Both the position numbers and the translations under genes were made by a program. Shown piece after piece: positions 1 to 11,238 of a stretch of 11,238 bases of DNA. The DNA comes from a virus (Duplodnaviria > Heunggongvirae > Uroviricota > Caudoviricetes), in the IMG/VR virus record IMGVR_UViG_3300005613_000041, positions 1 through 11,238 of that record. One strand, written 5' to 3'. How positions within the stretch are numbered: the first letter of the stretch is position 1; the number at the start of each line of letters is the position of its first letter. The notes beneath the pieces were generated by a model. It saw nothing but the letters and a program-made list of their open reading frames with translations. It was not told the DNA's origin and did no database searches.

Positions 1-2
1 CT

Positions 3-89
3 GGGTTCGCGGGCTGGGACCACGCTCCGTCGTTCTCGGAAGACCAAATCGGGGTGCGCGGTGTCGGGAATCACCTCGTCAGTGTTTAG
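3..89 (+). CDS. 3' end (5'-truncated by window) of a putative Mtd-like C-type-lectin-fold receptor-binding protein; resembles a DGR variable repeat (VR)
   Basis: Frame +3 reads GFAGWDHAPSFSEDQIGVRGVGNHLVSV*, with TAG at 87-89. It matches the W-x3-P-S-x-S-x4-G-x-R-G-V-x2-H-L-x3-stop pattern of the Bordetella phage BPP-1 Mtd C-terminus as I recall it. Variable-type positions carry NNC codons (GGC, GAC, CAC, TTC). Too short for the ORF track. Confidence 0.6.
   Translation, partial: GFAGWDHAPSFSEDQIGVRGVGNHLVSV
50..68 (+). other. G/C-rich element at the VR 3' end (candidate IMH-associated G/C element)
   Basis: CGGGGTGCGCGGTGTCGGG encodes the GVRGVG motif. Position and composition parallel the G/C tract at the 3' end of BPP-1-type VRs. 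Assignment is inference. Confidence 0.35.
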
Positions 90-99
90 CAACATGCGA

Positions 100-124
100 C
101 CATCTGCGATATACGCAAGAGTGG
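100..124. other. Imperfect inverted repeat just downstream of the Mtd-like stop codon (candidate DGR target-recognition hairpin)
   Basis: CCATCTGCG-ATATA-CGCAAGAGTGG: perfect TGCG/CGCA core (105-108/114-117), extendable to 9 bp with two single-base bulges. Starts 11 nt after the TAG. No U-tract, so not a typical intrinsic terminator. Confidence 0.3.
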
Positions 125-153
125 CCACACAACCAAATTAACCATTATGACTT

Positions 154-393
154 ATGATATTGAACATTAACTCGCGGGAAGATCTTGACGCCCTGAAGGG
201 CACGCAGTCTTACGCCGACTTTATCAACTACCTCAAGGGCAGTATGACACGCAAGATCAATGTCGCCGAATACCCGGATAACTACAATCGCGAGGGGTAC
301 GATGGCCCAGAGATTGAGCCGGTCTGGGAGGAAGTAGAGGATATGACTGTCATTGAGCGTTTTGGCTTCTCGAAAGAGGAGACGCTCGACTGA
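154..393 (+). CDS. Small acidic phage hypothetical protein (79 aa), possibly tail-fibre associated
   Basis: Clean ORF with consistent GC-rich codon usage. The N-terminal INSREDLDALKGT and C-terminal IERFGFS resemble, from memory, small proteins encoded next to phage tail-fibre genes. Function not established. Confidence 0.8.
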   Translation: MILNINSREDLDALKGTQSYADFINYLKGSMTRKINVAEYPDNYNREGYDGPEIEPVWEEVEDMTVIERFGFSKEETLD

Positions 394-449
394 TGCACAG
401 GCTTGCAGCGATAAGGACTGTATCAGTGTCAAATTAAAAAGATAATCTA

Positions 450-758
450 ATGAATATACAACAATTAAGATACATAAATAATTCTTCAGCTAAAAGATTA
501 GTTGAATTAGAACAAATATATGGTTATATTAATATACATGAAACTAAAAATATGTTATTAATAAGTATAGCTAAAGATGTTTTAGATGAATCAGGATGGT
601 ATGAACTAAATCCTACAACTTATAATGAAGTATTAGAATTTGTTAGTTCTTTATTTAGAGAAAGTAAAGTTAGTTTAGTGGAAGTACCAACAGATGAAAT
701 TTATAGTAGTTTTAATGATCCTCAAACATCCTATACTTATGATGATTTAACTATATAA
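450..758 (+). CDS. Hypothetical protein (102 aa)
   Basis: ORF with AT-rich codon usage, co-oriented with the module, ends TAA TGA. No recognisable motif. Confidence 0.75.
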   Translation: MNIQQLRYINNSSAKRLVELEQIYGYINIHETKNMLLISIAKDVLDESGWYELNPTTYNEVLEFVSSLFRESKVSLVEVPTDEIYSSFNDPQTSYTYDDLTI

Positions 759-771
759 TGACTAACTAACT

Positions 772-1497
772 ATGACCAAAGTAGAAAAAATTAAATCATT
801 AATCGAAAGTGTTTTTAATGATTTAGAATTTGAAGAAAAAGAACATAAATATAAATTAAAAAAAGGTGGTGAATTAAAGTCAGTATCAAAAAGTATTGAA
901 TCATACAAAAGAAAATTTGATCAAGATAATATATCTAAAGCTTATGCTAAAAAACATAAGAGAAGAGTTAGTGATGTACTAGCTGAATGGCAAGAAGAAA
1001 ATGATAAATCAATTAAATTAGGTAATAGAGTCCATAAATATGCCGAAGATTATTTTCATAACAGAAACAAAGAGCCAGAGGATTTTTATGAAGAAAATGT
1101 AATTAAATTTTTTAATAGTTTACCAGATCATATGATTCCTATTTGTTCTGAAGTAAGAATATATGATAAAAGTCTTGGATTTGCTGGAACAGTAGATCTA
1201 TTGATATATGATACAGAAAAAGATGGTATTATAGTTGGTGATTATAAAACTAATAAAAATATCTATAAGAATTTTGCTGGTCAAAAAATGGAATCACCAT
1301 TTAATTATCTTTTAGATTCACCATTTAATGGGTATCAATTGCAACTTAGTATGTATCAAATTCCTTTAGAAAATATTGGTTTAAAAGTTATTGAGAGAAA
1401 TGTTATTTGGTTCAAACCTGATACTACTTATGAAGTTATTCCAACAGATGATTATACTTCTCACCTTAGATATTATACAATGATAAAAACAACATAA
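772..1497 (+). CDS. PD-(D/E)XK superfamily nuclease (RecB/lambda-exonuclease-like)
   Basis: Motifs in canonical order: SVS, LGNRVH, SEVRI, GFAGTVDLL, GDYKT, QLQLSMY. Only one Cys, so no Fe-S cluster. Confidence 0.88.
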   Translation: MTKVEKIKSLIESVFNDLEFEEKEHKYKLKKGGELKSVSKSIESYKRKFDQDNISKAYAKKHKRRVSDVLAEWQEENDKSIKLGNRVHKYAEDYFHNRNKEPEDFYEENVIKFFNSLPDHMIPICSEVRIYDKSLGFAGTVDLLIYDTEKDGIIVGDYKTNKNIYKNFAGQKMESPFNYLLDSPFNGYQLQLSMYQIPLENIGLKVIERNVIWFKPDTTYEVIPTDDYTSHLRYYTMIKTT

Positions 1498-1498
1498 T

Positions 1499-1906
1499 AT
1501 GTGTGAGACCCTCAATAAAATAGAACAGATATGTACTGATGATAACCCCCATAGCAAAGGAGTTAAACTTCTTGCTTCATTAGTAGATGATAGAATAAAG
1601 ATAATTCATAACAATGATAAAAAGATAACTGAGTTATTAGAAAATCTACTTACTAGATTCGATAATTTAGATAGACATCAGCAAGAATTACAGAAAGAAA
1701 TAAATCGTAATTTCGTAGAAAGATCAGAATGTCCTGTTTGGCAAAAAAAGGATGATGTAATATTCTATACAACATTTAGAAAAAGACATCCATTTATATT
1801 TTTTTCTTCTGTTGTTGGAATGATAACTTCTAGTTTATTTTTATTAAAAGATAATATAATTGATAACTTAAATCAAATAAAAAAATTAATATTTAATTTA
1901 TTCTAA
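1499..1906 (+). CDS. Small coiled-coil protein with a C-terminal transmembrane helix (holin-like or membrane-anchored; function uncertain)
   Basis: Heptad-like segment LLENLLTRFDNLDRHQQELQKEI, basic RKRH, then hydrophobic PFIFFSSVVGMITSSLFLL (aa 98-116, nt 1790-1846). Confidence 0.7.
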   Translation: MCETLNKIEQICTDDNPHSKGVKLLASLVDDRIKIIHNNDKKITELLENLLTRFDNLDRHQQELQKEINRNFVERSECPVWQKKDDVIFYTTFRKRHPFIFFSSVVGMITSSLFLLKDNIIDNLNQIKKLIFNLF

Positions 1907-2526
1907 TGAAAATTTCAGAGTTAATTTATAGAATAAAATCATTATTTCCAGAAAAAGATTCATCACAATCAGGAAAAATATATGATAATAGACTTATTTA
2001 TAATAAGCTAACCTCAGTAAGAAATAGATTGATAACACAACAATATACCAATCATAGTTTTGTTGGTCAATGGAGTTATCAATCATTTTTAATTGAATTA
2101 GAATTAGTAGATAATCCATTTGATGATTCGTCTTATAAAAAGAAGATGTTAAGATCTGTAAATAAAATACCTAAAATATTAAGTACGATTGATAAACATC
2201 TTATACAATCATGTACTAATGTTGATGGTACGATTAGATTTTTTATTACTTCATGGAAAAATATGAATTATATAAAATCAAATAAATACTTGAAAGATAA
2301 AATACATTACTTAATTTTTAATGACTATTTGTACATAATTAATAGTAGTATTCTACAAAAAGTATTATTAACAGCCGTATTTGTTGATCCAATATCTATT
2401 TATACTAGTTCTACTGATTATATGGAAGAAGAATTTCCTATTGATGACGGAAATATTGACAGTTTAATATCTTTAACGTTACAAGAACTAATACCGAATT
2501 TAAAGAATGACAAAGGGAACGACTAG
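1906..2526 (+). CDS. crAss-like tail ring protein (206 aa)
   Basis: N-terminus MKISELIYRI...DSS...DNRLIYNKLTSVRNRLITQQY and C-terminal AVFVDP...EEEFPIDD...LTLQEL resemble crAss-like ring proteins. Sits upstream of the IHF-like and tail tubular genes, with a TAATG overlap to the previous gene. Confidence 0.7.
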   Translation: MKISELIYRIKSLFPEKDSSQSGKIYDNRLIYNKLTSVRNRLITQQYTNHSFVGQWSYQSFLIELELVDNPFDDSSYKKKMLRSVNKIPKILSTIDKHLIQSCTNVDGTIRFFITSWKNMNYIKSNKYLKDKIHYLIFNDYLYIINSSILQKVLLTAVFVDPISIYTSSTDYMEEEFPIDDGNIDSLISLTLQELIPNLKNDKGND

Positions 2527-2974
2527 TAGTTATAGATTATATAGAAGGAATGCTCTAGAAGAAAGAGTAGATATTACACAATATAGAGATATAACAAACA
2601 AATATCTGCTTTATTTAGTAAATAAATTAAAAGAAAATGGACAAGTTAAGCTTCCATTAGAATTAGGTACAATAGTATTTGAAGGAAAAAAGATTAAAAT
2701 AAAATTTAATGAAGATGGAGAAGTAACTAATCTCCCTGTAGATTGGAAATTAACTAAAGAATTCTGGAATGAATTTCCAGAGAAAAAAAATAAAGAATAC
2801 ATTTATTATGATAATGATCACACTAACGGAGTAAGATATAAATTTAAGTGGAAACATTTGGGTAATAAATTAAAATTTAAAAGATTTTATACTTTTGTAT
2901 CTTGTAGAGCATTAAAAAGAGATTTTGCTAAGCTTATAAAAGAAGAAAAAAAGGAATATATGGTTCATGAATAA
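2507..2974 (+). CDS. crAss-like IHF/HU-family DNA-binding protein
   Basis: Basic 155-aa protein. GQVKLPLELGTI matches the IHF/HU beta-strand motif, followed by the crAss-type extension PVDWKLTKEFW...NDHTNGVRYKFKW...RALKR. Conserved position just upstream of the tail tubular gene. Confidence 0.75.
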   Translation: MTKGTTSSYRLYRRNALEERVDITQYRDITNKYLLYLVNKLKENGQVKLPLELGTIVFEGKKIKIKFNEDGEVTNLPVDWKLTKEFWNEFPEKKNKEYIYYDNDHTNGVRYKFKWKHLGNKLKFKRFYTFVSCRALKRDFAKLIKEEKKEYMVHE

Positions 2975-3809
2975 TAATTATGTAAGTATAGATAATGTTT
3001 TAGCTAAAATAAATGATGATTATGCTTTTGAAATTGACGAAGGTATTCTTATTAAATGGATAGCAGAGGCATTAGGATTTCTTAATGTTAATATGTTAGG
3101 TATGGAAGAAAGAATAGCTGTTGTTGATGTTAGTAATTATCAATGTAGATTGCCTAGATTTTGTAAATCTATTATTCAAATAGTGAAGAATAATAATAGT
3201 GAGAGTATTAATAGCGATTCTATTGTAAGTAGTACTGGAACAATTACAACATATGATGATGATGATAGGATAGTTGACTTAGAAGAATTTAATATTATTA
3301 ACATCCCTTATTTAGAGTTTAACTATAGTTATTATGGTTTCAATAAGATGACTAAAAATAATTTTACATCAGTTAAGTTAGCTAATAATAACTTATTTAA
3401 AATAAGTGTTTGTGATATAGATCCAATTTATGTAACAGATGGTGCTGAATATACTATTGTCGGAGAAGATACATTAAGATTTAGTTTTGAAAGTGCTCAA
3501 GTTGTAATTATTTTTTTACAACAAAGATTAGATGAAAATGGTTATCCACTAATCCCAGATGATACTTACGTAATTGATGCTATCAGTAAATATATACTAT
3601 ATAAGATGTCTATAAGAGAATATGTTCAACACAGACAAGGATCAGTTGATAGAAAAAGAGAAATCGAAGATGATTGGTTAAGAGCTAAGAATACAGTTAC
3701 TTCAATGTACATGGTTCCTAGATCTTTAGAAGAATATAACAATCTGTTGAAAAGTACTAATAAATTATTACCACGTACAGACAGACATGAAAACTTTTAT
3801 AAAGAATGA
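2967..3809 (+). CDS. Tail tubular / ring protein (crAss-like Ttub, P22 gp4-like)
   Basis: 280 aa: YVSIDNVLAKI...WIAEALGFL...VDVSNYQCRLP and C-terminal DENGYPLIPDD...AISKYI. Lies directly upstream of the muzzle gene with a 4-nt ATGA overlap. Confidence 0.75.
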   Translation: MNNNYVSIDNVLAKINDDYAFEIDEGILIKWIAEALGFLNVNMLGMEERIAVVDVSNYQCRLPRFCKSIIQIVKNNNSESINSDSIVSSTGTITTYDDDDRIVDLEEFNIINIPYLEFNYSYYGFNKMTKNNFTSVKLANNNLFKISVCDIDPIYVTDGAEYTIVGEDTLRFSFESAQVVIIFLQQRLDENGYPLIPDDTYVIDAISKYILYKMSIREYVQHRQGSVDRKREIEDDWLRAKNTVTSMYMVPRSLEEYNNLLKSTNKLLPRTDRHENFYKE

Positions 3810-6800
3810 AAGATAAAAATATACAAACACCTATCAAAGGACTGAATACTGATAGTTCACCTATTAATCAACCAGAAGGTACTTATAGATACGCTTTAAA
3901 TAGTATCAATAGTAGTAAAGATGGTAAAATTGGTATGTTATCTAAAGAGTCAGGTAATGTTCCTGTAGCTCAATTATCAGATGGATATATACCGATAGGT
4001 CATATTTACATTACTGATAATTCTATTGTTATATTTTCAGTAAATGATTCTGAAAATAGAAGTGAAATTGGAATTTTTGATAAAAATAGTGATTACACAC
4101 TTATTGTTAACAGTGGTGAATTAAATTTTAACATAAGACATCAAATAGAAGGTGAATATAGATTAAGAAATGGTGAAAGAATTGTTTATTGGGTAGATGG
4201 ATTAAATAATGCTAGAGTTTTTAATTTAGATAAACCTTCAACCTACTGGTCAACTGCTTTTACTAACTGGTTAGAAAATGGTAATCCCGAATCTTCATTT
4301 GATGGTGAAAAATGGAATATAGCCAAATTTGAACTTGTAAAGATTTATGAGAAAATACCAACATTTGAAAATATTGAAATTCTTTATGGTGGATATATAA
4401 AACCTGGTTCATATAGTTTTGCCATTCAGTATTTAGATGAAGACTTAAATCCAAGTAATTGGAACAATACTTCTAATCCTGTTAATATTTATTCTGATAA
4501 TTTAAAGGATGAATATCATACTATAAGAGGTTCGAGAAATATTGATAGTGCTGTAATGACTTATGGTGTGTCTAATAAATCAATAAAACTTACTGTTGGT
4601 AATTTAGATGCTAATTATCAGTATTACAGAATAGCTATCATCCAAGCTAATGAGATGAAAGGGTTAGCTACTAAGGCATACGTATCAGAAATCAAATCTA
4701 TTAATGATCCTGTATATGTATATAATGGATATGATGAAGTATTAACTGAAACACCTTTGGAAGATATATTAGTTGAAAAAGAATTAATTCTTGCTGCTTC
4801 ACATATTGAACAGCTAGAAAATAGATTACTTCTCTCAAAAGGTAAAGTTGATGATGTAAATTGGTGTTCTTTTCAAAGATATGCTTCTAAAATTAACTCT
4901 CATCTATCTCTTAAAAGAGTTTATCTTAATACTATCAATGATAGTTCTAATCCTAAAAATCCCATATCTACTTTTGATAGTGTAGGTTATATGCCGGGAG
5001 ATGTTTATTCTTTTGGTATTATTTATCTTATGAAAAATGGTACACTTTCTCCAGTATTTCATATTCCTGGAAGAAACAAAAATTACATTAGAAAAAACAA
5101 TAATGGTTTGGATGATAATATGGATTATTACGAAACTACATACAGTAGTTATCCTGAAATCCATAAATGTCCTAGTAATAAAGATTATTGGGGTCAAGAT
5201 GCTTATGGTGAACAATTAGTTAATAAACCTATTAGACATCATAAATTTCCATCACGAGGTTCTAGAAATATACCAGTTTTTGATACATCTGATGAAGCTG
5301 TAGAGATAAAAAAATATACTCTAAAAGTTAAAATTGCTCTTAAAGATGGAGAAACATATCCATTAAATGTTCTTACTGGTGAACCACTAATCGTTGATTA
5401 CAAATGTTTATATAAGCTTTCAGATAATGAATCTACTAACGAATATTCAGATACTCTAAATGAGTTATTAACCTATAAAAATGCAGAAATAACATTATAC
5501 TCAGGTGATAATACAATTGAAAAAATCAATGGTAATAATGGTATAATGTATGGTGAAATAACAGAACATACTGATAAATTTGAATGGAAATTTTCAGTTG
5601 AAGAAGAAATTGTAGAAACTCTAGATCCGGCATATTATACTGATATAATGGGAATCAGATTTGATACTATTGAAAAACCACATGAAGATGTTGTAGGATA
5701 CTATATTGTTAGACAAAAGAAACAAGATAGTGATAGACTTATTTTAGACAATGCTATTTTTGGATTAATAGATAATAGAAATGTTTCTGGTATTGGTAAT
5801 TATAAAGTATTCAATAAATGGATTACAACTAATAGTGTTTCAAGCAGTGGAACAACTGTTGATAATCAACATCTATACTTCTTTTCACCTATTCATCAAT
5901 TTAATAATGAAAACTTAGTGTTTGATGATATTGAAATTAATGGATACTATGACTTATCTAATAAGATGACTTCTTTTAATGGAGGAATCCCTCCAAGTGA
6001 TTCTGATTATGATAGAAGAAAATATAGTGTTGTTGTAGAAGATGTCATGGAAGGAACAACTTTTAATCCTAGTATTCATGAAGATAATGATACAGATGGA
6101 TTTAGTCTTCTTATTGGATATAGAAATTGTAATGGTGATTATAAAAATATTACTTCTGAATATTCATTCTTACAAACAACCGAAAATGAATCAGCCATAG
6201 ATGATATTATTTATCTTAATGCTGCTAGCAATAAGAAATATTCTGATAGAATAATATATAATGCTTCTATGGATAACAAAATTGGCATTATCAAGTTTAA
6301 AAAGCCTTTGTTTTCAAGTTCAGCTGAGAAAGTAAGACTATTTGGTGATACACATCAAGCTAGAGTACTTTATGGATCATTAAAAAGAACAAACACAAGT
6401 GCTTATAGTAATTTTATGGATAGAAACTACTATAAAGAACATAATAATGTTATACTATTCAAGAATAGTGGAATGGGTAATTCTGTCAGTTTGTTTAATG
6501 GTGATGCTTATGTATCTCCTATGAATCTTGTATCAATGACATATTATGATATGTTGTTTGCTTCTAGAAAGCTAAAAGAAAAAGAAAAAAAATCTGGTGG
6601 CATTCTAGGAACAGTACTTACTGTAGTAGGTGTAGCAGCTACAATATTTACAGCAGGAGCGGCAGCTGGTGTATTTGGTGCAGGATTAGCAGCTACATTT
6701 GGTAGTGCTACAACATTAACAGGAGCTTTAGCATTAAGTAGTTCAGCTATCAGTGCTGGTATATCTATGAATAAGTCTGGTATTAATGTAGAATCAGCTG

Positions 6801-9151
6801 CTAAAATGATTAGTGAAGAATATCCAAGAGGACTTAATCTTGCTACGAGAGATACTGATATGGTATCAACACCAACGATAGACACACCTTGGGGATGTAA
6901 CTTAGGTAACTCTTTATCAGATGATGCCATTGTATGGTTTGCTGATAGATTGACTAATATATTTTTTGAATCTAATATTAATATTAATCTTCGTACTAGT
7001 ATAACATCACTTAACAATGATTTCATTAATCCATTAAATGATGGAGGTAACGAAGAATACGAACTCGATCATGAAGATCTATTAAGTGATCTGAAGGTAA
7101 ACTTAAAAGGATTTGATGAGGAAGAATTTAGACAATATTTAATTGAAAAATTAACCATCATTGATGTAGAACATGATAATGGTAGATTATACAAAGGTTA
7201 TTCTACAGCAGAATGGTATGATGTAAATCCAGATTATCATAGAAAGAATGAAGAAAAAGTATATATACATCTTCCAGTTAATTATACTTGTTGTACTGAA
7301 GATTCTAATGATGAAAGATTTTATAATAACAGGGTGTGGTATTCTCAACAAAGCTTTCAAGAAGAAGCTTCTGATAATTACAGAGTATTTTTAACAAATA
7401 ATTATAAAGACATTGAAGCTGAGTGTGGAGAAATTACTAATATTTTTAGAAAAAGTGATGAATTATTTATGCACACTACAGAAGGATTATGGAAGTTACC
7501 AGCTAACCTTCAAGAAAAAATAACAACTGATGGATTAACTACATATATTGGAACAGGTGAATTTTTATCTATACCTCCTAAAAAGATTAATGATCAAGTA
7601 GGAAATTTAGGTAGTCAACAAAAACATGCAACTATAATTACTAAATATGGAATATTTTTTGTTAACGAAATTGAAGGTAAAATTTATTTACTAAGTGATA
7701 ATCTGAGAGATATTACTAACAGTATGTCATCTTGGTTTAAAAATAATCTTATCTCAAATCTTAGTAATCAAATTTATGATAGTTGTGGTTGTGATTGGGA
7801 TAATGATAACATGTCTAGTATAGATGGTACTGGTATTATTTCAACATTTGATCCAAAAAATGATAGAATACTTTTAACAAAAAAAGATTATAGCATAATT
7901 GACAATAGTTCTTTCAAAGGTCAATTAAATAATAATTCTAGTGATTATGAAGTAGACGATATGGTTCTCGAAAATGGTAAATTCTATAAAATTACAAACA
8001 TTGAATATACAGAAGTTTTTAATGAAGGATTTAATAATTTTATAGAAGATGAAGTAGTTACTATTAATACTATAAGCTTACCTAGTTCTACATCTGAACT
8101 AGGCGGTAGTGTTGTTAGAGATAATTTTGAAATGGAAAAAGGTGTTTTTTACTATACTCCTCCTGACATCGAAGGTGAGTTTACAGATACAATAATCATT
8201 AATACCAGTATTAATAAATGTAATTCAGATAAAGTTATAGTGAATGTGACTGGAGAACCAAATGTTGGAGAAAGTTTGTGGAATTTGGAAGATGGAGCTT
8301 ATGATCCTTCACCAGTAACATCTAATCAAATTATTGTATATGATAAATATCTTAAAATTGAAAGAGCTTTTGTTCCAAGTTGTTCTGATAATTTAGACGA
8401 CACCGTAGCCAAAAACATATTGTATATTGGAACGGACGAAGCAAATCCCCAATTTGAATCTTTATGGTTCAATTGTCTTGGTAGTTATTTTAGCAATAAA
8501 GGTTGGATAGGAGACCATAATCCTGTTGATAGAATAAGTCTTGATAGAGATTATTGTTCATATGATGTTAATAGAAATGGTAACAATATGATCTATGGTC
8601 AAGCTAATTGTGGAGCTTTCAATAATATGACAAATAGTAATATTTTCATTGAAACATTAAGTGAGGATATTGATAATTCAGAATATGACATCAATTTAAA
8701 AGTTTGGTTTGCTGATAGTGATGTTTCATTCGAAGGATGGATTCCAATGACTAAAACTAAATCTGGTGGTTATTCTACGAATAGTTATGCTTATATACCT
8801 TATATTGATTGGTATATTCATACTGTACCAAGAGTTGTATTAATTAATGAGTATTATAATAAGTTTGACTTACAGATTCCAAATGGTACTGGAACTATCA
8901 GATTTAAAGATAATATTACAGTTGGTCATAAAGTCACTATTGAATATTTAGATGAACGATTCATTATAGATAAAATGTCAAACTTTAATGAAAACATTAA
9001 TGACACTTATGACTTTTATTTGGGAGAAATAGATTATACAACAAGAGCTTTTATTACCATTACGATAGAAGCTGATTGGAAAAATCCTGAAGGTCAATCA
9101 AACTTCAATAAAAAAATTGACTTTGAAATAGAATATATAGAAGATACTTAA
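3806..9151 (+). CDS. Muzzle / tail stabilization protein (crAss-like Tstab, P22 gp10-like), N-terminal part, with a C-terminal Ig-like/unknown extension
   Basis: 1781 aa. Muzzle-type motifs: KGLNTDSS...YRYALN, LNFN...VYWVDGLN, PGSYSFAIQY, GYMPGDVYSFGIIY, IRHHKFP, NYTCC...RVWYSQQS, FDPKNDRILLTKKDY (aa 1348-1362). The family's terminal SWTISYS...WISFHSY block is absent here and appears in the next ORF. Confidence 0.8.
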   Translation: MKDKNIQTPIKGLNTDSSPINQPEGTYRYALNSINSSKDGKIGMLSKESGNVPVAQLSDGYIPIGHIYITDNSIVIFSVNDSENRSEIGIFDKNSDYTLIVNSGELNFNIRHQIEGEYRLRNGERIVYWVDGLNNARVFNLDKPSTYWSTAFTNWLENGNPESSFDGEKWNIAKFELVKIYEKIPTFENIEILYGGYIKPGSYSFAIQYLDEDLNPSNWNNTSNPVNIYSDNLKDEYHTIRGSRNIDSAVMTYGVSNKSIKLTVGNLDANYQYYRIAIIQANEMKGLATKAYVSEIKSINDPVYVYNGYDEVLTETPLEDILVEKELILAASHIEQLENRLLLSKGKVDDVNWCSFQRYASKINSHLSLKRVYLNTINDSSNPKNPISTFDSVGYMPGDVYSFGIIYLMKNGTLSPVFHIPGRNKNYIRKNNNGLDDNMDYYETTYSSYPEIHKCPSNKDYWGQDAYGEQLVNKPIRHHKFPSRGSRNIPVFDTSDEAVEIKKYTLKVKIALKDGETYPLNVLTGEPLIVDYKCLYKLSDNESTNEYSDTLNELLTYKNAEITLYSGDNTIEKINGNNGIMYGEITEHTDKFEWKFSVEEEIVETLDPAYYTDIMGIRFDTIEKPHEDVVGYYIVRQKKQDSDRLILDNAIFGLIDNRNVSGIGNYKVFNKWITTNSVSSSGTTVDNQHLYFFSPIHQFNNENLVFDDIEINGYYDLSNKMTSFNGGIPPSDSDYDRRKYSVVVEDVMEGTTFNPSIHEDNDTDGFSLLIGYRNCNGDYKNITSEYSFLQTTENESAIDDIIYLNAASNKKYSDRIIYNASMDNKIGIIKFKKPLFSSSAEKVRLFGDTHQARVLYGSLKRTNTSAYSNFMDRNYYKEHNNVILFKNSGMGNSVSLFNGDAYVSPMNLVSMTYYDMLFASRKLKEKEKKSGGILGTVLTVVGVAATIFTAGAAAGVFGAGLAATFGSATTLTGALALSSSAISAGISMNKSGINVESAAKMISEEYPRGLNLATRDTDMVSTPTIDTPWGCNLGNSLSDDAIVWFADRLTNIFFESNININLRTSITSLNNDFINPLNDGGNEEYELDHEDLLSDLKVNLKGFDEEEFRQYLIEKLTIIDVEHDNGRLYKGYSTAEWYDVNPDYHRKNEEKVYIHLPVNYTCCTEDSNDERFYNNRVWYSQQSFQEEASDNYRVFLTNNYKDIEAECGEITNIFRKSDELFMHTTEGLWKLPANLQEKITTDGLTTYIGTGEFLSIPPKKINDQVGNLGSQQKHATIITKYGIFFVNEIEGKIYLLSDNLRDITNSMSSWFKNNLISNLSNQIYDSCGCDWDNDNMSSIDGTGIISTFDPKNDRILLTKKDYSIIDNSSFKGQLNNNSSDYEVDDMVLENGKFYKITNIEYTEVFNEGFNNFIEDEVVTINTISLPSSTSELGGSVVRDNFEMEKGVFYYTPPDIEGEFTDTIIINTSINKCNSDKVIVNVTGEPNVGESLWNLEDGAYDPSPVTSNQIIVYDKYLKIERAFVPSCSDNLDDTVAKNILYIGTDEANPQFESLWFNCLGSYFSNKGWIGDHNPVDRISLDRDYCSYDVNRNGNNMIYGQANCGAFNNMTNSNIFIETLSEDIDNSEYDINLKVWFADSDVSFEGWIPMTKTKSGGYSTNSYAYIPYIDWYIHTVPRVVLINEYYNKFDLQIPNGTGTIRFKDNITVGHKVTIEYLDERFIIDKMSNFNENINDTYDFYLGEIDYTTRAFITITIEADWKNPEGQSNFNKKIDFEIEYIEDT

Positions 9152-9152
9152 T

Positions 9153-11186
9153 ATGGATATTATTACTACAGTTAGTAAAGGAGAGAGAGATGAAGGACTT
9201 TTAGGTAAGTATTACAATAATACAAGTATGTCTGGAGATCCTGTATTAACACGGATTGATGAAACTATTAATTTTGAATGGTCTTATAACAGTCCCGGTC
9301 TTGGTGTCGCATTAGATTATTTTTCAGTTGTTTGGGAAGGTAAAGTGTATGCTCCTTTTACTGGAAATTATATATTTACTACATTTAATGATGATGGTGT
9401 AAGACTATATGTTAATAATGTTTTAATTATAAATGATTGGAATCATCATCCTGTAACTAGAAATGATTCACCAGCAGTATCATTAACAGCTGGTAATTGG
9501 TATACAATTAAATTAGAATATTTTGAGTTACATACTATAGCTACTATAAAATTATTATGGTCTTATGATAAAATTACAGATCAAATTATACCCAAAACAT
9601 ATTTAACTATTCCAGATTCAGCGGTTATACCAATAAAAACTTCTAAAATTTCTTTAGCAGGAAGTTACAAGGTAAACACTTGGAATAAGAATTATATTAA
9701 TAATGGATTGAATGGTGAATATTTTAATAATACTGATCTATCTGGTAATCCAGTATTAGAAAGAATAGATAATCAAATAAACTTCAATTGGATTGAATCA
9801 AGTCCTGATGCACTTGTCAATAATGATGGTTTCTCAGTCAGGTGGACAGGTTATATACAACCGCCTGTGGATGAAGAATATATATTTGGTATTTCATCTG
9901 ATGATGGCGCTAAGTTAATTCTTAATGGATCAACTATCATAGATAATTGGACTAACTATAATGAAGATGATTTTATGATTTCTGTTCCAGTACAATTATA
10001 TAAAGATACATTATATCCAATAACAATTGAATATTTTGAAAATACTGAAAAGGCAAGAATCTCATTATTATGGTCCTATAAAAATATTGTTAATCAAGTT
10101 ATATCAACAGATCATTTATATACTTCTGATACTGTTTCAAAAATAGAAACAGTATCTCATTTTACTGGAATTAATTCATTTATTAGATATAGTTCTAATC
10201 TTGAAATTAATAAACTTTATAGATTTAATTATGAGATTATAAATAATTCTGAATGTATGGGTGTTAGATTGATTGCTGGTAATACTAAAGGTGAGTGGAA
10301 AACAATTGGTGGTACATATAGTGATACATTATTATTATCAGGTAACAATGAAATTGCATTTGAGGGATATGGTGAGTTTACAATTCAAAATTTCACAATA
10401 GAATTATATGAAATTTCAAAAGATAGAATATATCTTTCTGATGATACTTTGTTCGAAAATAAATCATGGACTATTAGTTATTCATTAAGACTTGATGATT
10501 GGATTAGCTTTCATAGCTATATACCGGATTATTACATATCAACGTTAAAAAATTATTATTCTTTAATTCAAAATAATTATATTTATGAACATAATGATCA
10601 TTCAAGTTATGCTAGATTTTATGAACAAAATTTTCCACATATTATTGAATTAGTATCTAATAAAAATCCAGCTAATAGTAAAGTTTGGGATAATATTGAA
10701 ATAGATTTAACAACAAGAATATATGATAGTGATACAGATGAGTTCAAGAATTCTTCATTAGAGTTTTTTGATAAAGCAATCATATATAATTCTAAACAAT
10801 CAACAGGAGAAATAAATATTATTAACAATGAGTTTTCATCTGATTATTTGATGGATCAAATTACTGATACTCAAGATAGTGTAATAGCTGATAAAAATGA
10901 AAATACTTGGAGTTTAAATAATATTAGAGATAATGTAGCTATTTATGATCAACCTTTATTTACTAAAGCTTGGAATTACATTAAAGCAAGTTTCCCAATA
11001 GATAAAGTTGTAAATCCAACTGCTTATACTGAAGGTACAATAATAGATTTTAGTAAAGAATGGACTGATAAACAACCTCTTAGAGATAAATATATAATTA
11101 TACGATTAATAAATAGTAATACAAATGAATCTATTCAATTTATAACTAACTATAGTATAGAAGAAACAACAAATTCAATAAGATAA
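9153..11186 (+). CDS. Tandem PA14-domain protein fused to the C-terminal part of the muzzle protein
   Basis: 677 aa. Two PA14 domains (aa ~14-151 and ~185-323), a beta-rich segment (aa ~335-420), then FENKSWTISYSLRLDDWISFHSYIPDYY (from aa 434), FPHIIELVSN, FDKAIIYNSKQSTGEI and PLRDKYIIIRL, all typical of crAss-like muzzle C-termini. Confidence 0.8.
   Translation: MDIITTVSKGERDEGLLGKYYNNTSMSGDPVLTRIDETINFEWSYNSPGLGVALDYFSVVWEGKVYAPFTGNYIFTTFNDDGVRLYVNNVLIINDWNHHPVTRNDSPAVSLTAGNWYTIKLEYFELHTIATIKLLWSYDKITDQIIPKTYLTIPDSAVIPIKTSKISLAGSYKVNTWNKNYINNGLNGEYFNNTDLSGNPVLERIDNQINFNWIESSPDALVNNDGFSVRWTGYIQPPVDEEYIFGISSDDGAKLILNGSTIIDNWTNYNEDDFMISVPVQLYKDTLYPITIEYFENTEKARISLLWSYKNIVNQVISTDHLYTSDTVSKIETVSHFTGINSFIRYSSNLEINKLYRFNYEIINNSECMGVRLIAGNTKGEWKTIGGTYSDTLLLSGNNEIAFEGYGEFTIQNFTIELYEISKDRIYLSDDTLFENKSWTISYSLRLDDWISFHSYIPDYYISTLKNYYSLIQNNYIYEHNDHSSYARFYEQNFPHIIELVSNKNPANSKVWDNIEIDLTTRIYDSDTDEFKNSSLEFFDKAIIYNSKQSTGEINIINNEFSSDYLMDQITDTQDSVIADKNENTWSLNNIRDNVAIYDQPLFTKAWNYIKASFPIDKVVNPTAYTEGTIIDFSKEWTDKQPLRDKYIIIRLINSNTNESIQFITNYSIEETTNSIR
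9192..9605 (+). repeat. PA14 domain copy 1
   Basis: GLLGKYYNN...RIDETINFEW...FSVVWEG...Y.F...NDDGVRLYVN...YTIKLEYFE...IKLLWS. DDG at codons 80-82. Confidence 0.88.
9705..10121 (+). repeat. PA14 domain copy 2
   Basis: GLNGEYFNN...RIDNQINFNW...FSVRWTG...Y.F...SDDGAKLILN...YPITIEYFE...ISLLWS. DDG at codons 250-252. 16/24 identical residues with copy 1 over the YYNNT...INFEW block. Confidence 0.88.
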
Positions 11187-11187
11187 C

Positions 11188-11238
11188 ATGAATATATTAC
11201 CAACAATACTAAACACTGGAGCTAGTGCTTTAGGTAAA
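11188..11238 (+). CDS. 5' start of next gene (truncated by window); possibly a virion cargo/ejection protein
   Basis: ATG 1 nt after the TAA at 11184-11186, open to the window end (MNILPTILNTGASALGK). The product guess rests only on position after the muzzle in crAss-like genomes. Confidence 0.55.
   Translation, partial: MNILPTILNTGASALGK

Follow-up and report, generated by a model that had tools for sequence, protein, structure and literature searches.

CrAss-like phages have a conserved gatekeeper, the muzzle, which is known from a single solved structure, as one chain. Can it also be made from two chains that are encoded by two genes? This question is raised by a stretch of 11,238 nucleotides, the first 11.2 kb of a 75-kb virus record (IMG/VR record IMGVR_UViG_3300005613_000041, positions 1 to 11,238). 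We analysed this whole stretch and will call it the window. A preliminary description of the window had suggested that two adjacent open reading frames (ORFs) together encode the core of a muzzle, and that an internal loop has become two free ends with accessory domains. We found support for this idea from the adjacency of two motifs in single-chain relatives, from the conservation of the split, from a model of the complex, and from a superposition on the solved muzzle, gp44 of Bacteroides phage PhiCrAss001. Very probably, the window contains a true gene fission of a crAss-like muzzle. The gene would have been broken within a hypervariable loop between neighbouring beta-strands of a late propeller blade, and the two chains would assemble non-covalently by strand complementation.

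Muzzle identity of the two genes

These features of the window are central to the argument:

3806..9151, + strand: ORF1, 1781 amino acids, muzzle chain 1 (from PF25731, phrog_15100, and its position after the ring genes)
7847..7891, + strand: motif 1 (FDPKNDRILLTKKDY), ORF1 amino acids 1348-1362, the final conserved beta-hairpin of chain 1's core (from the translation and from relatives)
9149..9155, + strand: TAA-T-ATG, where the two genes meet; ORF2 is in the +1 frame (from the sequence)
9153..11186, + strand: ORF2, 677 amino acids, muzzle chain 2 (from phrog_15100 and Pfam)
10452..10535, + strand: motif 2 (FENKSWTISYS...WISFHSYIPDYY), ORF2 amino acids 434-461, two strands that come directly after motif 1 in single-chain muzzles
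10452..11183, + strand: the muzzle's C-terminal region (remaining propeller strands and C-terminal beta-sandwich), ORF2 amino acids 434-677 (from phrog_15100 and superposition on gp44)

We first consider whether both ORFs are homologous to muzzles. Amino acids 1-1372 of ORF1 align to positions 1-1364 of the 1783-position profile phrog_15100 (E = 2e-218), and amino acids 431-675 of ORF2 align to positions 1539-1781 of the same profile (E = 1.3e-41). That a single profile covers both ORFs implies homology far beyond chance. ORF1 also matches Pfam's crAss_MUZ (PF25731; 170.2 bits, with a gathering cut-off of 27) in two segments: amino acids 4-369 correspond to model positions 2-340, and amino acids 1159-1398 correspond to positions 1006-1223 of 1224. 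The end of the model (1223 of 1224) coincides with the end of the match at ORF1 amino acids 1150-1400. Overall, ORF1 comprises a ring-joining part with the N-terminal part of the propeller, a large inserted body, the late propeller blades through motif 1, and then accessory domains. A search of the PDB sequences with ORF1 (phmmer) found no match, and the link to gp44 needed a profile: the profile of ORF1 amino acids 1130-1362 matches residues 1007-1192 of gp44 (7qok_A; E = 2e-7).

For ORF2, the link to gp44 is structural. A profile of its C-terminal part did not reach gp44 by sequence. Although crAss_MUZ_C (PF25729) alone stays below its cut-off (22.7 bits vs. 27), the modelled structure contains the equivalent of gp44's C-terminal region. 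The model of ORF2 amino acids 425-669 superposes on gp44 residues 1172-1366 with 178 aligned residues (Z = 11.1; root-mean-square deviation (rmsd) 3.3 Å; Foldseek E = 2.3e-7). Together with the alignment to the C-terminal positions of phrog_15100, this bears out the expectation in the preliminary description that ORF2 amino acids 434-677 correspond to a muzzle C-terminus.

We then asked how the two motifs are arranged in related proteins. A HMMER search with ORF2 amino acids 425-677 found 1631 relatives, and we analysed the best 150. Of these, 112 are single chains of 1410-2239 amino acids with the match at their C-terminus. In these 112 homologues, as the preliminary description had stated for crAss-like muzzles, both motifs lie in one polypeptide with a variable loop between them. 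The loop is 0-535 amino acids long (median 76). The shortest forms, with loops of 0-5 amino acids, simply read strand-turn-strand (for example, ...LLIYTKKHIVGDINKSWTVSY...). Because the loop can be this short, motifs 1 and 2 are neighbouring strands of one sheet. Judging from these alignments, the loop is a hot spot for insertions.

In the window, the separation amounts to 854 amino acids (419 in ORF1 and 435 in ORF2) if one counts from where LTKKDY ends up to the N of NKSW. (The earlier spacing of 420 + 433 amino acids is correct if counted to the F of FENKSW, and the coordinates given earlier for both motifs and for the junction agree exactly with the translations.) In an AlphaFold model, the strands of motif 2 are at ORF2 amino acids 440-444 and 449-454. 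Of the seven propeller blades of gp44, blade 3 contains the inserted IG2 and crass domains (residues 318-1021) and blade 4 carries the gate loop (Bayfield et al. 2023, PMC10172136). This layout and our alignments place the break in one of the last propeller blades.

The gene order also fits. The window encodes a crAss-type tail module: a PD-(D/E)XK nuclease, ring protein 2, a small ORF, ring protein 1, ORF1, and ORF2, in that order. The ring protein genes are:

1906-2526, upstream of ORF1: CrAss_Ring_2 (Pfam)
2967-3809, directly upstream of ORF1: CrAss_Ring_1 (Pfam)

ORF1 thus follows the ring protein genes within the tail module, which is where a muzzle gene is found. What differs is that each muzzle subunit is not one polypeptide: two genes encode the protein.

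Within the muzzle body, ORF1 also has a stretch of 58 residues that is rich in glycine, alanine, threonine, and valine (amino acids 931-988, positions 6596-6769). It has no charged residues and is the protein's most hydropathic region. The segment is conserved in gp30 of Flavobacterium phage Fpv1 and in two other relatives (L003 and L004). Pfam gives only a marginal match, to an SseC-translocator-like family (E = 0.082). The segment could be a membrane-inserting or gate element.

The junction and other split muzzles

Is the split genuine? One concern is that a one-base insertion or deletion during sequencing or assembly has interrupted a continuous gene. Such breaks of the muzzle gene do exist in public contigs. 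In L004 (a 2.7x long-read contig), the frame changes within the Gly/Ala-rich segment (L004:7740-8060), and in L013 (1.1x coverage), there is an in-frame TAA inside motif 1 (L013:1700-1830). In L014 (a 2x long-read contig), the muzzle gene was called as several short consecutive ORFs, as judged from gene calls only. (These three contigs are useful negative controls for surveys.) Also, L005/P0004 and several other short database proteins are fragments that were cut at contig ends. We counted short database proteins as splits only if we had their genomic context.

Nevertheless, we give almost no credence to an artefact in the window, for four reasons. First, an independent contig from Logan (L012; 13 kb, from a different sequencing run, SRR22534032) has the same gene order, the same TAA-T-ATG, and ORFs of 1781 and 677 amino acids. 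It is 94.3% identical to the window at the nucleotide level: 421 of 7381 positions differ, and there are no insertions or deletions. Second, the junction reads ACT TAA T ATG (9146-9155), and the frame of ORF2 is closed by a TAG at 9138-9140, just four codons upstream of the ATG. An erroneous insertion or deletion would therefore need to fall within 11 specific bases (9141-9151). Third, we saw no homopolymer at the junction. Fourth, six other lineages are broken in the same loop.

The comparison to L012 also bears on whether both genes are functional. In the core of ORF1, 140 codons are changed silently while 34 amino acids are changed, and the core of ORF2 is under purifying selection as well. 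The excess of silent changes implies that both genes are under purifying selection in their own frames.

The six further lineages have C-terminal domains that are 30-45% identical, and their junctions are quite variable:

L003: TAA-C-ATG (1-nt gap)
L006: gap of 7 nt
L007/L008: gap of 9 nt, same frame, with a second in-frame TAA; found on 13 contigs from several runs
L009: gap of 14 nt
L010/L011: ATGA overlap; one JGI and one ENA assembly
L015: gap of 9 nt; in an 88.6-kb IMG/VR genome

Including the overlap, the gaps run from -4 to 14 nt, and all three relative frames (0, +1, and +2) occur. Such diversity speaks against both a sequencing error and a common frameshift. In every one of these lineages, chain 2 starts with a methionine, followed by a short and similar N-terminal strand and a head domain. 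A survey of relatives had been proposed earlier; it turned up both fused and split forms, with the split conserved in L012 and in the six lineages, so the view that the junction is genuine has held up. (A megablast search of GenBank phages with positions 7000-11238 found no match, and neither did a related-locus search with ORF2 as the single query.)

Short gaps are not unusual in this operon. TAA T ATG also occurs at 1495-1501 and TAA C ATG at 11184-11190, just as the preliminary description had it, and TAA-N-ATG is a normal junction between genes here. We found no terminator near or between ORF1 and ORF2 and no excess of promoter-like sites. We propose that one transcript would carry both genes and that each chain would be translated on its own; between the TAA of ORF1 and the start of ORF2, there is a single base. 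Coupled translation might also give a 1:1 stoichiometry. We considered read-through of ORF1's ochre codon as well and rejected it: in the frame that follows the TAA, there is a TAG at 9173-9175 and then another TAA, both within nine codons.

Another alternative, raised in the preliminary description, is a programmed +1 ribosomal frameshift or bypass. This would yield a single protein of about 2460 amino acids, either alone or beside the 1781-amino-acid product. ORF2 is in the +1 frame, one base past the stop codon; L003 has the same TAA-N-ATG spacing; and a fusion would restore the ancestral single chain. But the TAG at 9138-9140 would confine any shift to positions 9141-9151, and there, ACU UAA U does not allow the P-site tRNA to re-pair in the +1 frame. 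The other lineages have 7-, 9-, or 14-nt gaps or an ATGA overlap, and L007 has two in-frame TAA codons, so there is neither a conserved shift-prone site nor a fixed relationship between the frames. Also, a conserved methionine and N-terminal strand are at the start of every chain 2, and in many genomes with a break at a second site (see below), there are whole genes between the two halves. Finally, we found no RNA structure that might stimulate a shift: the junction's minimum free energy is -11.7 kcal/mol, compared to an average of -15.3 for shuffled sequences (z = +1.42), and it folds more weakly than 186 of 200 shuffles. With variable frames and gaps, a conserved ATG for each chain 2, and weakly structured RNA, the frameshift is unsupported and we consider it very unlikely.

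The two chains could also be joined after translation, by a split intein or by another covalent ligation, to give one mature chain. In crAss-like phages, inteins and introns are frequent, and genes are fragmented by introns, inteins, or recoding (Yutin et al., PMC7886860). But in Pfam scans of ORF1's tail and of ORF2's head, we found no family of the Hint or intein kind. ORF2 has no IntC-like block at its start and leads directly into a PA14 domain. Furthermore, the tails of chain 1 are wholly different between lineages (that of L007 has 123 amino acids, those of L003, L009, and L015 have a Cys-rich module, and the window's has about 420 amino acids), and the 1-nt gap in the window leaves no room for an intron. 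Covalent joining seems extremely improbable to us, and the routes to fragmentation that were described by Yutin et al. do not apply to the window's muzzle.

Modelled assembly and accessory domains

If the fission is genuine, then how would the two chains come together? As the preliminary description had suggested, we folded the two chains jointly. We modelled ORF1 amino acids 1130-1485 with ORF2 amino acids 326-677, each with an alignment of 64-68 relatives, and left out the distal accessory parts. The interaction prediction score from aligned errors (ipSAE) was 0.72, 0.72, and 0.71 in three runs, while the best of three controls scored 0.00. The runs share at least 88% of their contacts, and the predicted local distance difference test score (pLDDT) of the partner was at least 74. 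The most confident contacts link ORF1 amino acids ~1354-1364 to ORF2 amino acids ~434-443 in an antiparallel arrangement (residues 225-235 and 109-118 of the modelled pieces). In other words, the second strand of motif 1 is predicted to pair with the first strand of motif 2, across the two chains. This is the same hairpin as in the single-chain forms.

These results suggest how the muzzle would be completed. The last core strand of chain 1 (RILLTKKDY) and chain 2's first core strand (NKSWTISY) would form an antiparallel pair, and chain 2 would also supply the remaining strands and the C-terminal sandwich. The model also predicts a contact between the first inserted module of chain 1 (module A; ORF1 amino acids 1374-1415) and the head domain of chain 2 (ORF2 amino acids 342-357 and 414-429).

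The insertions between the two motifs consist of four parts:

7892..8260, + strand: module A, ORF1 amino acids 1363-1485, the first insert after motif 1, common to the lineages that are split in this loop
8261..9148, + strand: lineage-specific C-terminal extension of chain 1, amino acids 1486-1781 (about 300 amino acids)
9195..10130, + strand: tandem PA14 (PF07691), ORF2 amino acids 15-160 and 183-326, after the first ~11 residues
10128..10442, + strand: chain-2 head domain, ORF2 amino acids 326-430, a seven-stranded beta-sandwich of the carbohydrate-binding module (CBM) type (from AlphaFold and VIA-align)

Two of these parts are shared. Module A (about 120 amino acids) has BLASTP matches in the tails of chain 1 from L003, L007, and L009 (E = 4e-8 to 5e-6). 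A hidden Markov model of the head domain, which has about 110-135 amino acids, matches every chain 2 that is split in this loop and 0 of the 112 single-chain homologues; using tblastn, we found the domain in 0 of 50,697 GenBank phage records. In the AlphaFold model of ORF2 amino acids 326-677 (pLDDT 83 overall), the head domain reaches a pLDDT of about 90, and VIA-align matches it to CBM22, CBM16, CBM35, and CBM36 (Z = 8.3-9.5, rmsd 2.1-3.0, 92-98 residues). L007 has the minimal form: its chain 1 ends after module A (a 123-amino-acid tail), and its chain 2 has 376 amino acids.

The other two parts are more particular to the window. ORF2's PA14 match is very strong (215.5 bits vs. a cut-off of 24, E = 3.4e-64, in two stretches), but the PA14 dyad is absent from the other five chain-2 proteins that we aligned. 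The extension of ORF1 has no match in Pfam and only marginal matches in PHROG. Among 5.8 billion proteins, its tail (amino acids 1440-1781 or 1480-1781) has only one hit, an 88%-identical orthologue (P0164), and an Atlas feature search with the tail returned only sub-threshold rows (0.76). An AlphaFold model of the tail, built from five sequences, had a pLDDT of 33 and is unusable. At the C-terminal end of chain 1, L003, L006, L009, and L015 have a Cys-rich module. We propose that module A and the CBM-like head would form a common insertion core, and that the free ends would then gain lineage-specific domains, such as the ~300-amino-acid extension of chain 1 and the tandem PA14 near the N-terminal end of chain 2.

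What might the accessory domains do? PA14 is a carbohydrate-binding fold. By likeness of fold and family, the accessory domains probably bind glycans on the host's surface at the tail tip. They also diverge faster than the core. Between the window and L012, ORF1 is 89.3% identical over amino acids 1363-1781 and 97.5% identical over amino acids 1-1362, and ORF2 is 87.9% identical in its accessory parts and 95.0% identical in its core. Overall, the accessory parts (window positions 7892-10130) differ from L012 about three times more, at the protein level, than the core does. This suggests exposed, host-facing domains, for which faster evolution is expected. Two extra free ends allow the tail tip to be decorated, and judging by the PA14 and CBM-like domains, glycans would be recognised directly at the muzzle, which bears on host range. 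Modular decoration of this kind may confer an advantage.

These same observations could be read differently: ORF2 might be an exchangeable receptor-binding adaptor that docks on a muzzle which is functional without its C-terminal region. ORF2's lectin-type domains (PA14 and the CBM-like sandwich) and the rapid evolution of its accessory parts would fit. However, the C-terminal 240 amino acids are kept in all 112 of the single-chain homologues, and ORF1 entirely lacks this region. The core of ORF2 is under purifying selection, and in the model of the complex, its first strands share a sheet with motif 1. We think that an adaptor is very unlikely and that ORF2 is instead the second chain of a split muzzle.

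Several points weigh against fission with strand complementation. Separate translation and co-assembly are read indirectly, from sequence and from a model. The two modelled pieces both resemble parts of one solved chain (gp44, 7QOK), and their passing the ipSAE mark may reflect this likeness rather than binding. Of 80 solved complexes, 58 reached that mark, as did 2 of 110 mismatched pairs, but the model was built on custom alignments, so these counts hold only roughly. The position of the break is narrowed only as far as the last blades. The function of the accessory domains is argued from likeness of fold and family only. And in a tree of the C-terminal domains, the forms that are split in this loop are scattered in several places. 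A single origin of the split on this tree was rejected (approximately unbiased test, p = 0.001), so these forms are not one clade; the inserted cassette may have arisen once, combined with recombination or loss, or several times.

History of the split, a second break site, and known systems

We will call the loop that is broken in the window site 1. Module A and the head domain are shared across the site-1 lineages, which argues that the cassette itself is homologous. If so, the simplest history would be a single origin, followed by exchange or deletion of the cassette through recombination between the highly conserved flanking motifs. P0101, a 694-amino-acid fragment, is single-chain and has a short loop; of module A, it retains just the first 47 amino acids. 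The tree places it, with good support, as sister to the L003 group. Its position in the tree points to a recent gain or loss of the whole cassette.

To see how split muzzles are distributed, we scanned IMG/VR by tblastn with an alignment of the head domain plus motif 2, kept the best 80 loci (near-duplicates included), and used a profile for each of the two core parts to classify them. Single-chain muzzles, with loops of 38-165 amino acids, account for 18 of the loci, and just one (L015) is split at site 1. Another 59 of the 80 are split at a second site, although this is a ranked sample with near-identical genomes and not an estimate of prevalence. In the remaining two loci, the core parts are in different ORFs, and a stricter pass did not resolve them.

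Site 2 is about 40 amino acids downstream of the window's break, between the strands that are equivalent to ORF2 amino acids 468-472 and 476-480. It is again a hairpin turn. The site-2 chain 2 is uniform: it has 288 amino acids and starts with MSKTIxIKLTKxGP, and an 85-amino-acid head precedes the last ~200 amino acids (L017-L094; for example, L038:1666-8581 and L045:1690-7922). All of the stop codons are TAA. Thirty of the loci have gaps of -38 to 12 nt, including eight with TAA-N-ATG, and the other 29 have one or more ORFs between the two halves of the muzzle. For instance, L027 has a 212-amino-acid ORF that does not belong to any family (7100-7738), and L032 has a 705-amino-acid ORF with a Fib_succ_major domain (7140-9257; E = 5.7e-21). 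Three short library proteins (P0014, P0057, and P0141; 205-209 amino acids) also start at site 2. Going by these loci, two-gene muzzles are common in environmental crAss-like phages. The preliminary description had not foreseen that the split would be widespread or that there would be a second break point.

The chain 2 of L010 (L010:577-1950, P0053), which is split at site 1, also carries an insertion of about 85 amino acids at site 2, before its IYQHN motif. This second hot spot within a site-1 form implies that both loops can be used in one phage.

More speculatively, late propeller hairpins might be general docking ports. Repeated breaks would have hit the gene there, at two or more sites with some 40 amino acids between them, and the conserved flanking strands would serve both as a protein zipper and as recombination arms. 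By exchanging whole cassettes (the tail of chain 1, the stop and start codons, the head of chain 2, and, in part of the genomes, further genes that lie between the halves), phages could then retarget their tail tips. We offer this tentatively, as a possibility that we would not bet on. If it were true, then the split muzzle would be a modular host-range device, like the cassettes of tail fibres, and in some clades, it would be the dominant architecture rather than an oddity.

Split muzzles have practical consequences as well. Annotation pipelines will mislabel the second gene, as a PA14 protein in the window and as a hypothetical protein of 288 or 375 amino acids elsewhere. Similarly, analyses that are based on protein length, or that use a single-gene "Tstab/muzzle" marker, will truncate the split muzzle.

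How does the window compare to known systems? The gp44 protein of PhiCrAss001 (PDB 7QOK/7QOL) is a hexameric gatekeeper whose relatives vary in length because of insertions (Bayfield et al. 2023, PMC10172136). Its gene, like the one in the window, comes after the ring protein genes. But gp44 is one chain of 1371 amino acids, whereas the window's muzzle comprises two chains that total 2458 amino acids. The insertions that were reported to vary in length lie in the crass and IG2 domains, while the window's 854-amino-acid insertion sits in a hairpin late in the propeller and has the gene break within it.

The closest cultured relative is gp30 from Flavobacterium phage Fpv1, along with the FpV4-like phages of F. 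psychrophilum (phrog_15100). Fpv1's gp30 is about 31% identical to both ORFs (ORF2's C-terminal region aligns to gp30 amino acids 1489-1783), and it has the same flanking genes and the same Gly/Ala-rich segment. Unlike the window's muzzle, it is a single polypeptide of 1783 amino acids, with a loop of ~180 amino acids between the motifs and no PA14.

For the PA14 dyad, the nearest solved relatives are RsgI3 of Clostridium thermocellum (PDB 6QE7; E = 1.7e-50) and 6QDI (E = 1.7e-42), which also have PA14 in tandem. Those are extracellular sensor modules of bacterial anti-sigma factors, while the dyad in ORF2 is built into a tail-tip protein of a phage.

We found no description of a split muzzle in the searchable literature, and the nearest precedent is the nozzle of the Pseudomonas podophage A1002. 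There, the nozzle-base protein gp42 lacks the strands of propeller blades 1 and 2 and of the platform, and gp39, the nozzle-rope protein, supplies them through its C-terminal part (cryo-EM; PMC13730344, 2026). In both systems, a nozzle-type beta-propeller would be completed by strands from a second protein, and in A1002, the second protein also carries receptor-binding structures. However, A1002 belongs to another group of phages, and its break affects blades 1 and 2 and the platform, rather than a late blade near the C-terminus. Also, the window's chain 2 supplies the entire C-terminal region. Strand complementation in A1002 was seen by cryo-EM, whereas in the window, it is predicted from a model and from homology, which indicate that chain 2 would supply strands as in a two-protein nozzle. 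Gene fission with strand complementation was thus already known for a nozzle-type propeller, and it is undescribed for a crAss-like muzzle. Beside the A1002 nozzle, the split muzzle is a natural system in which to study strand complementation of beta-propellers.

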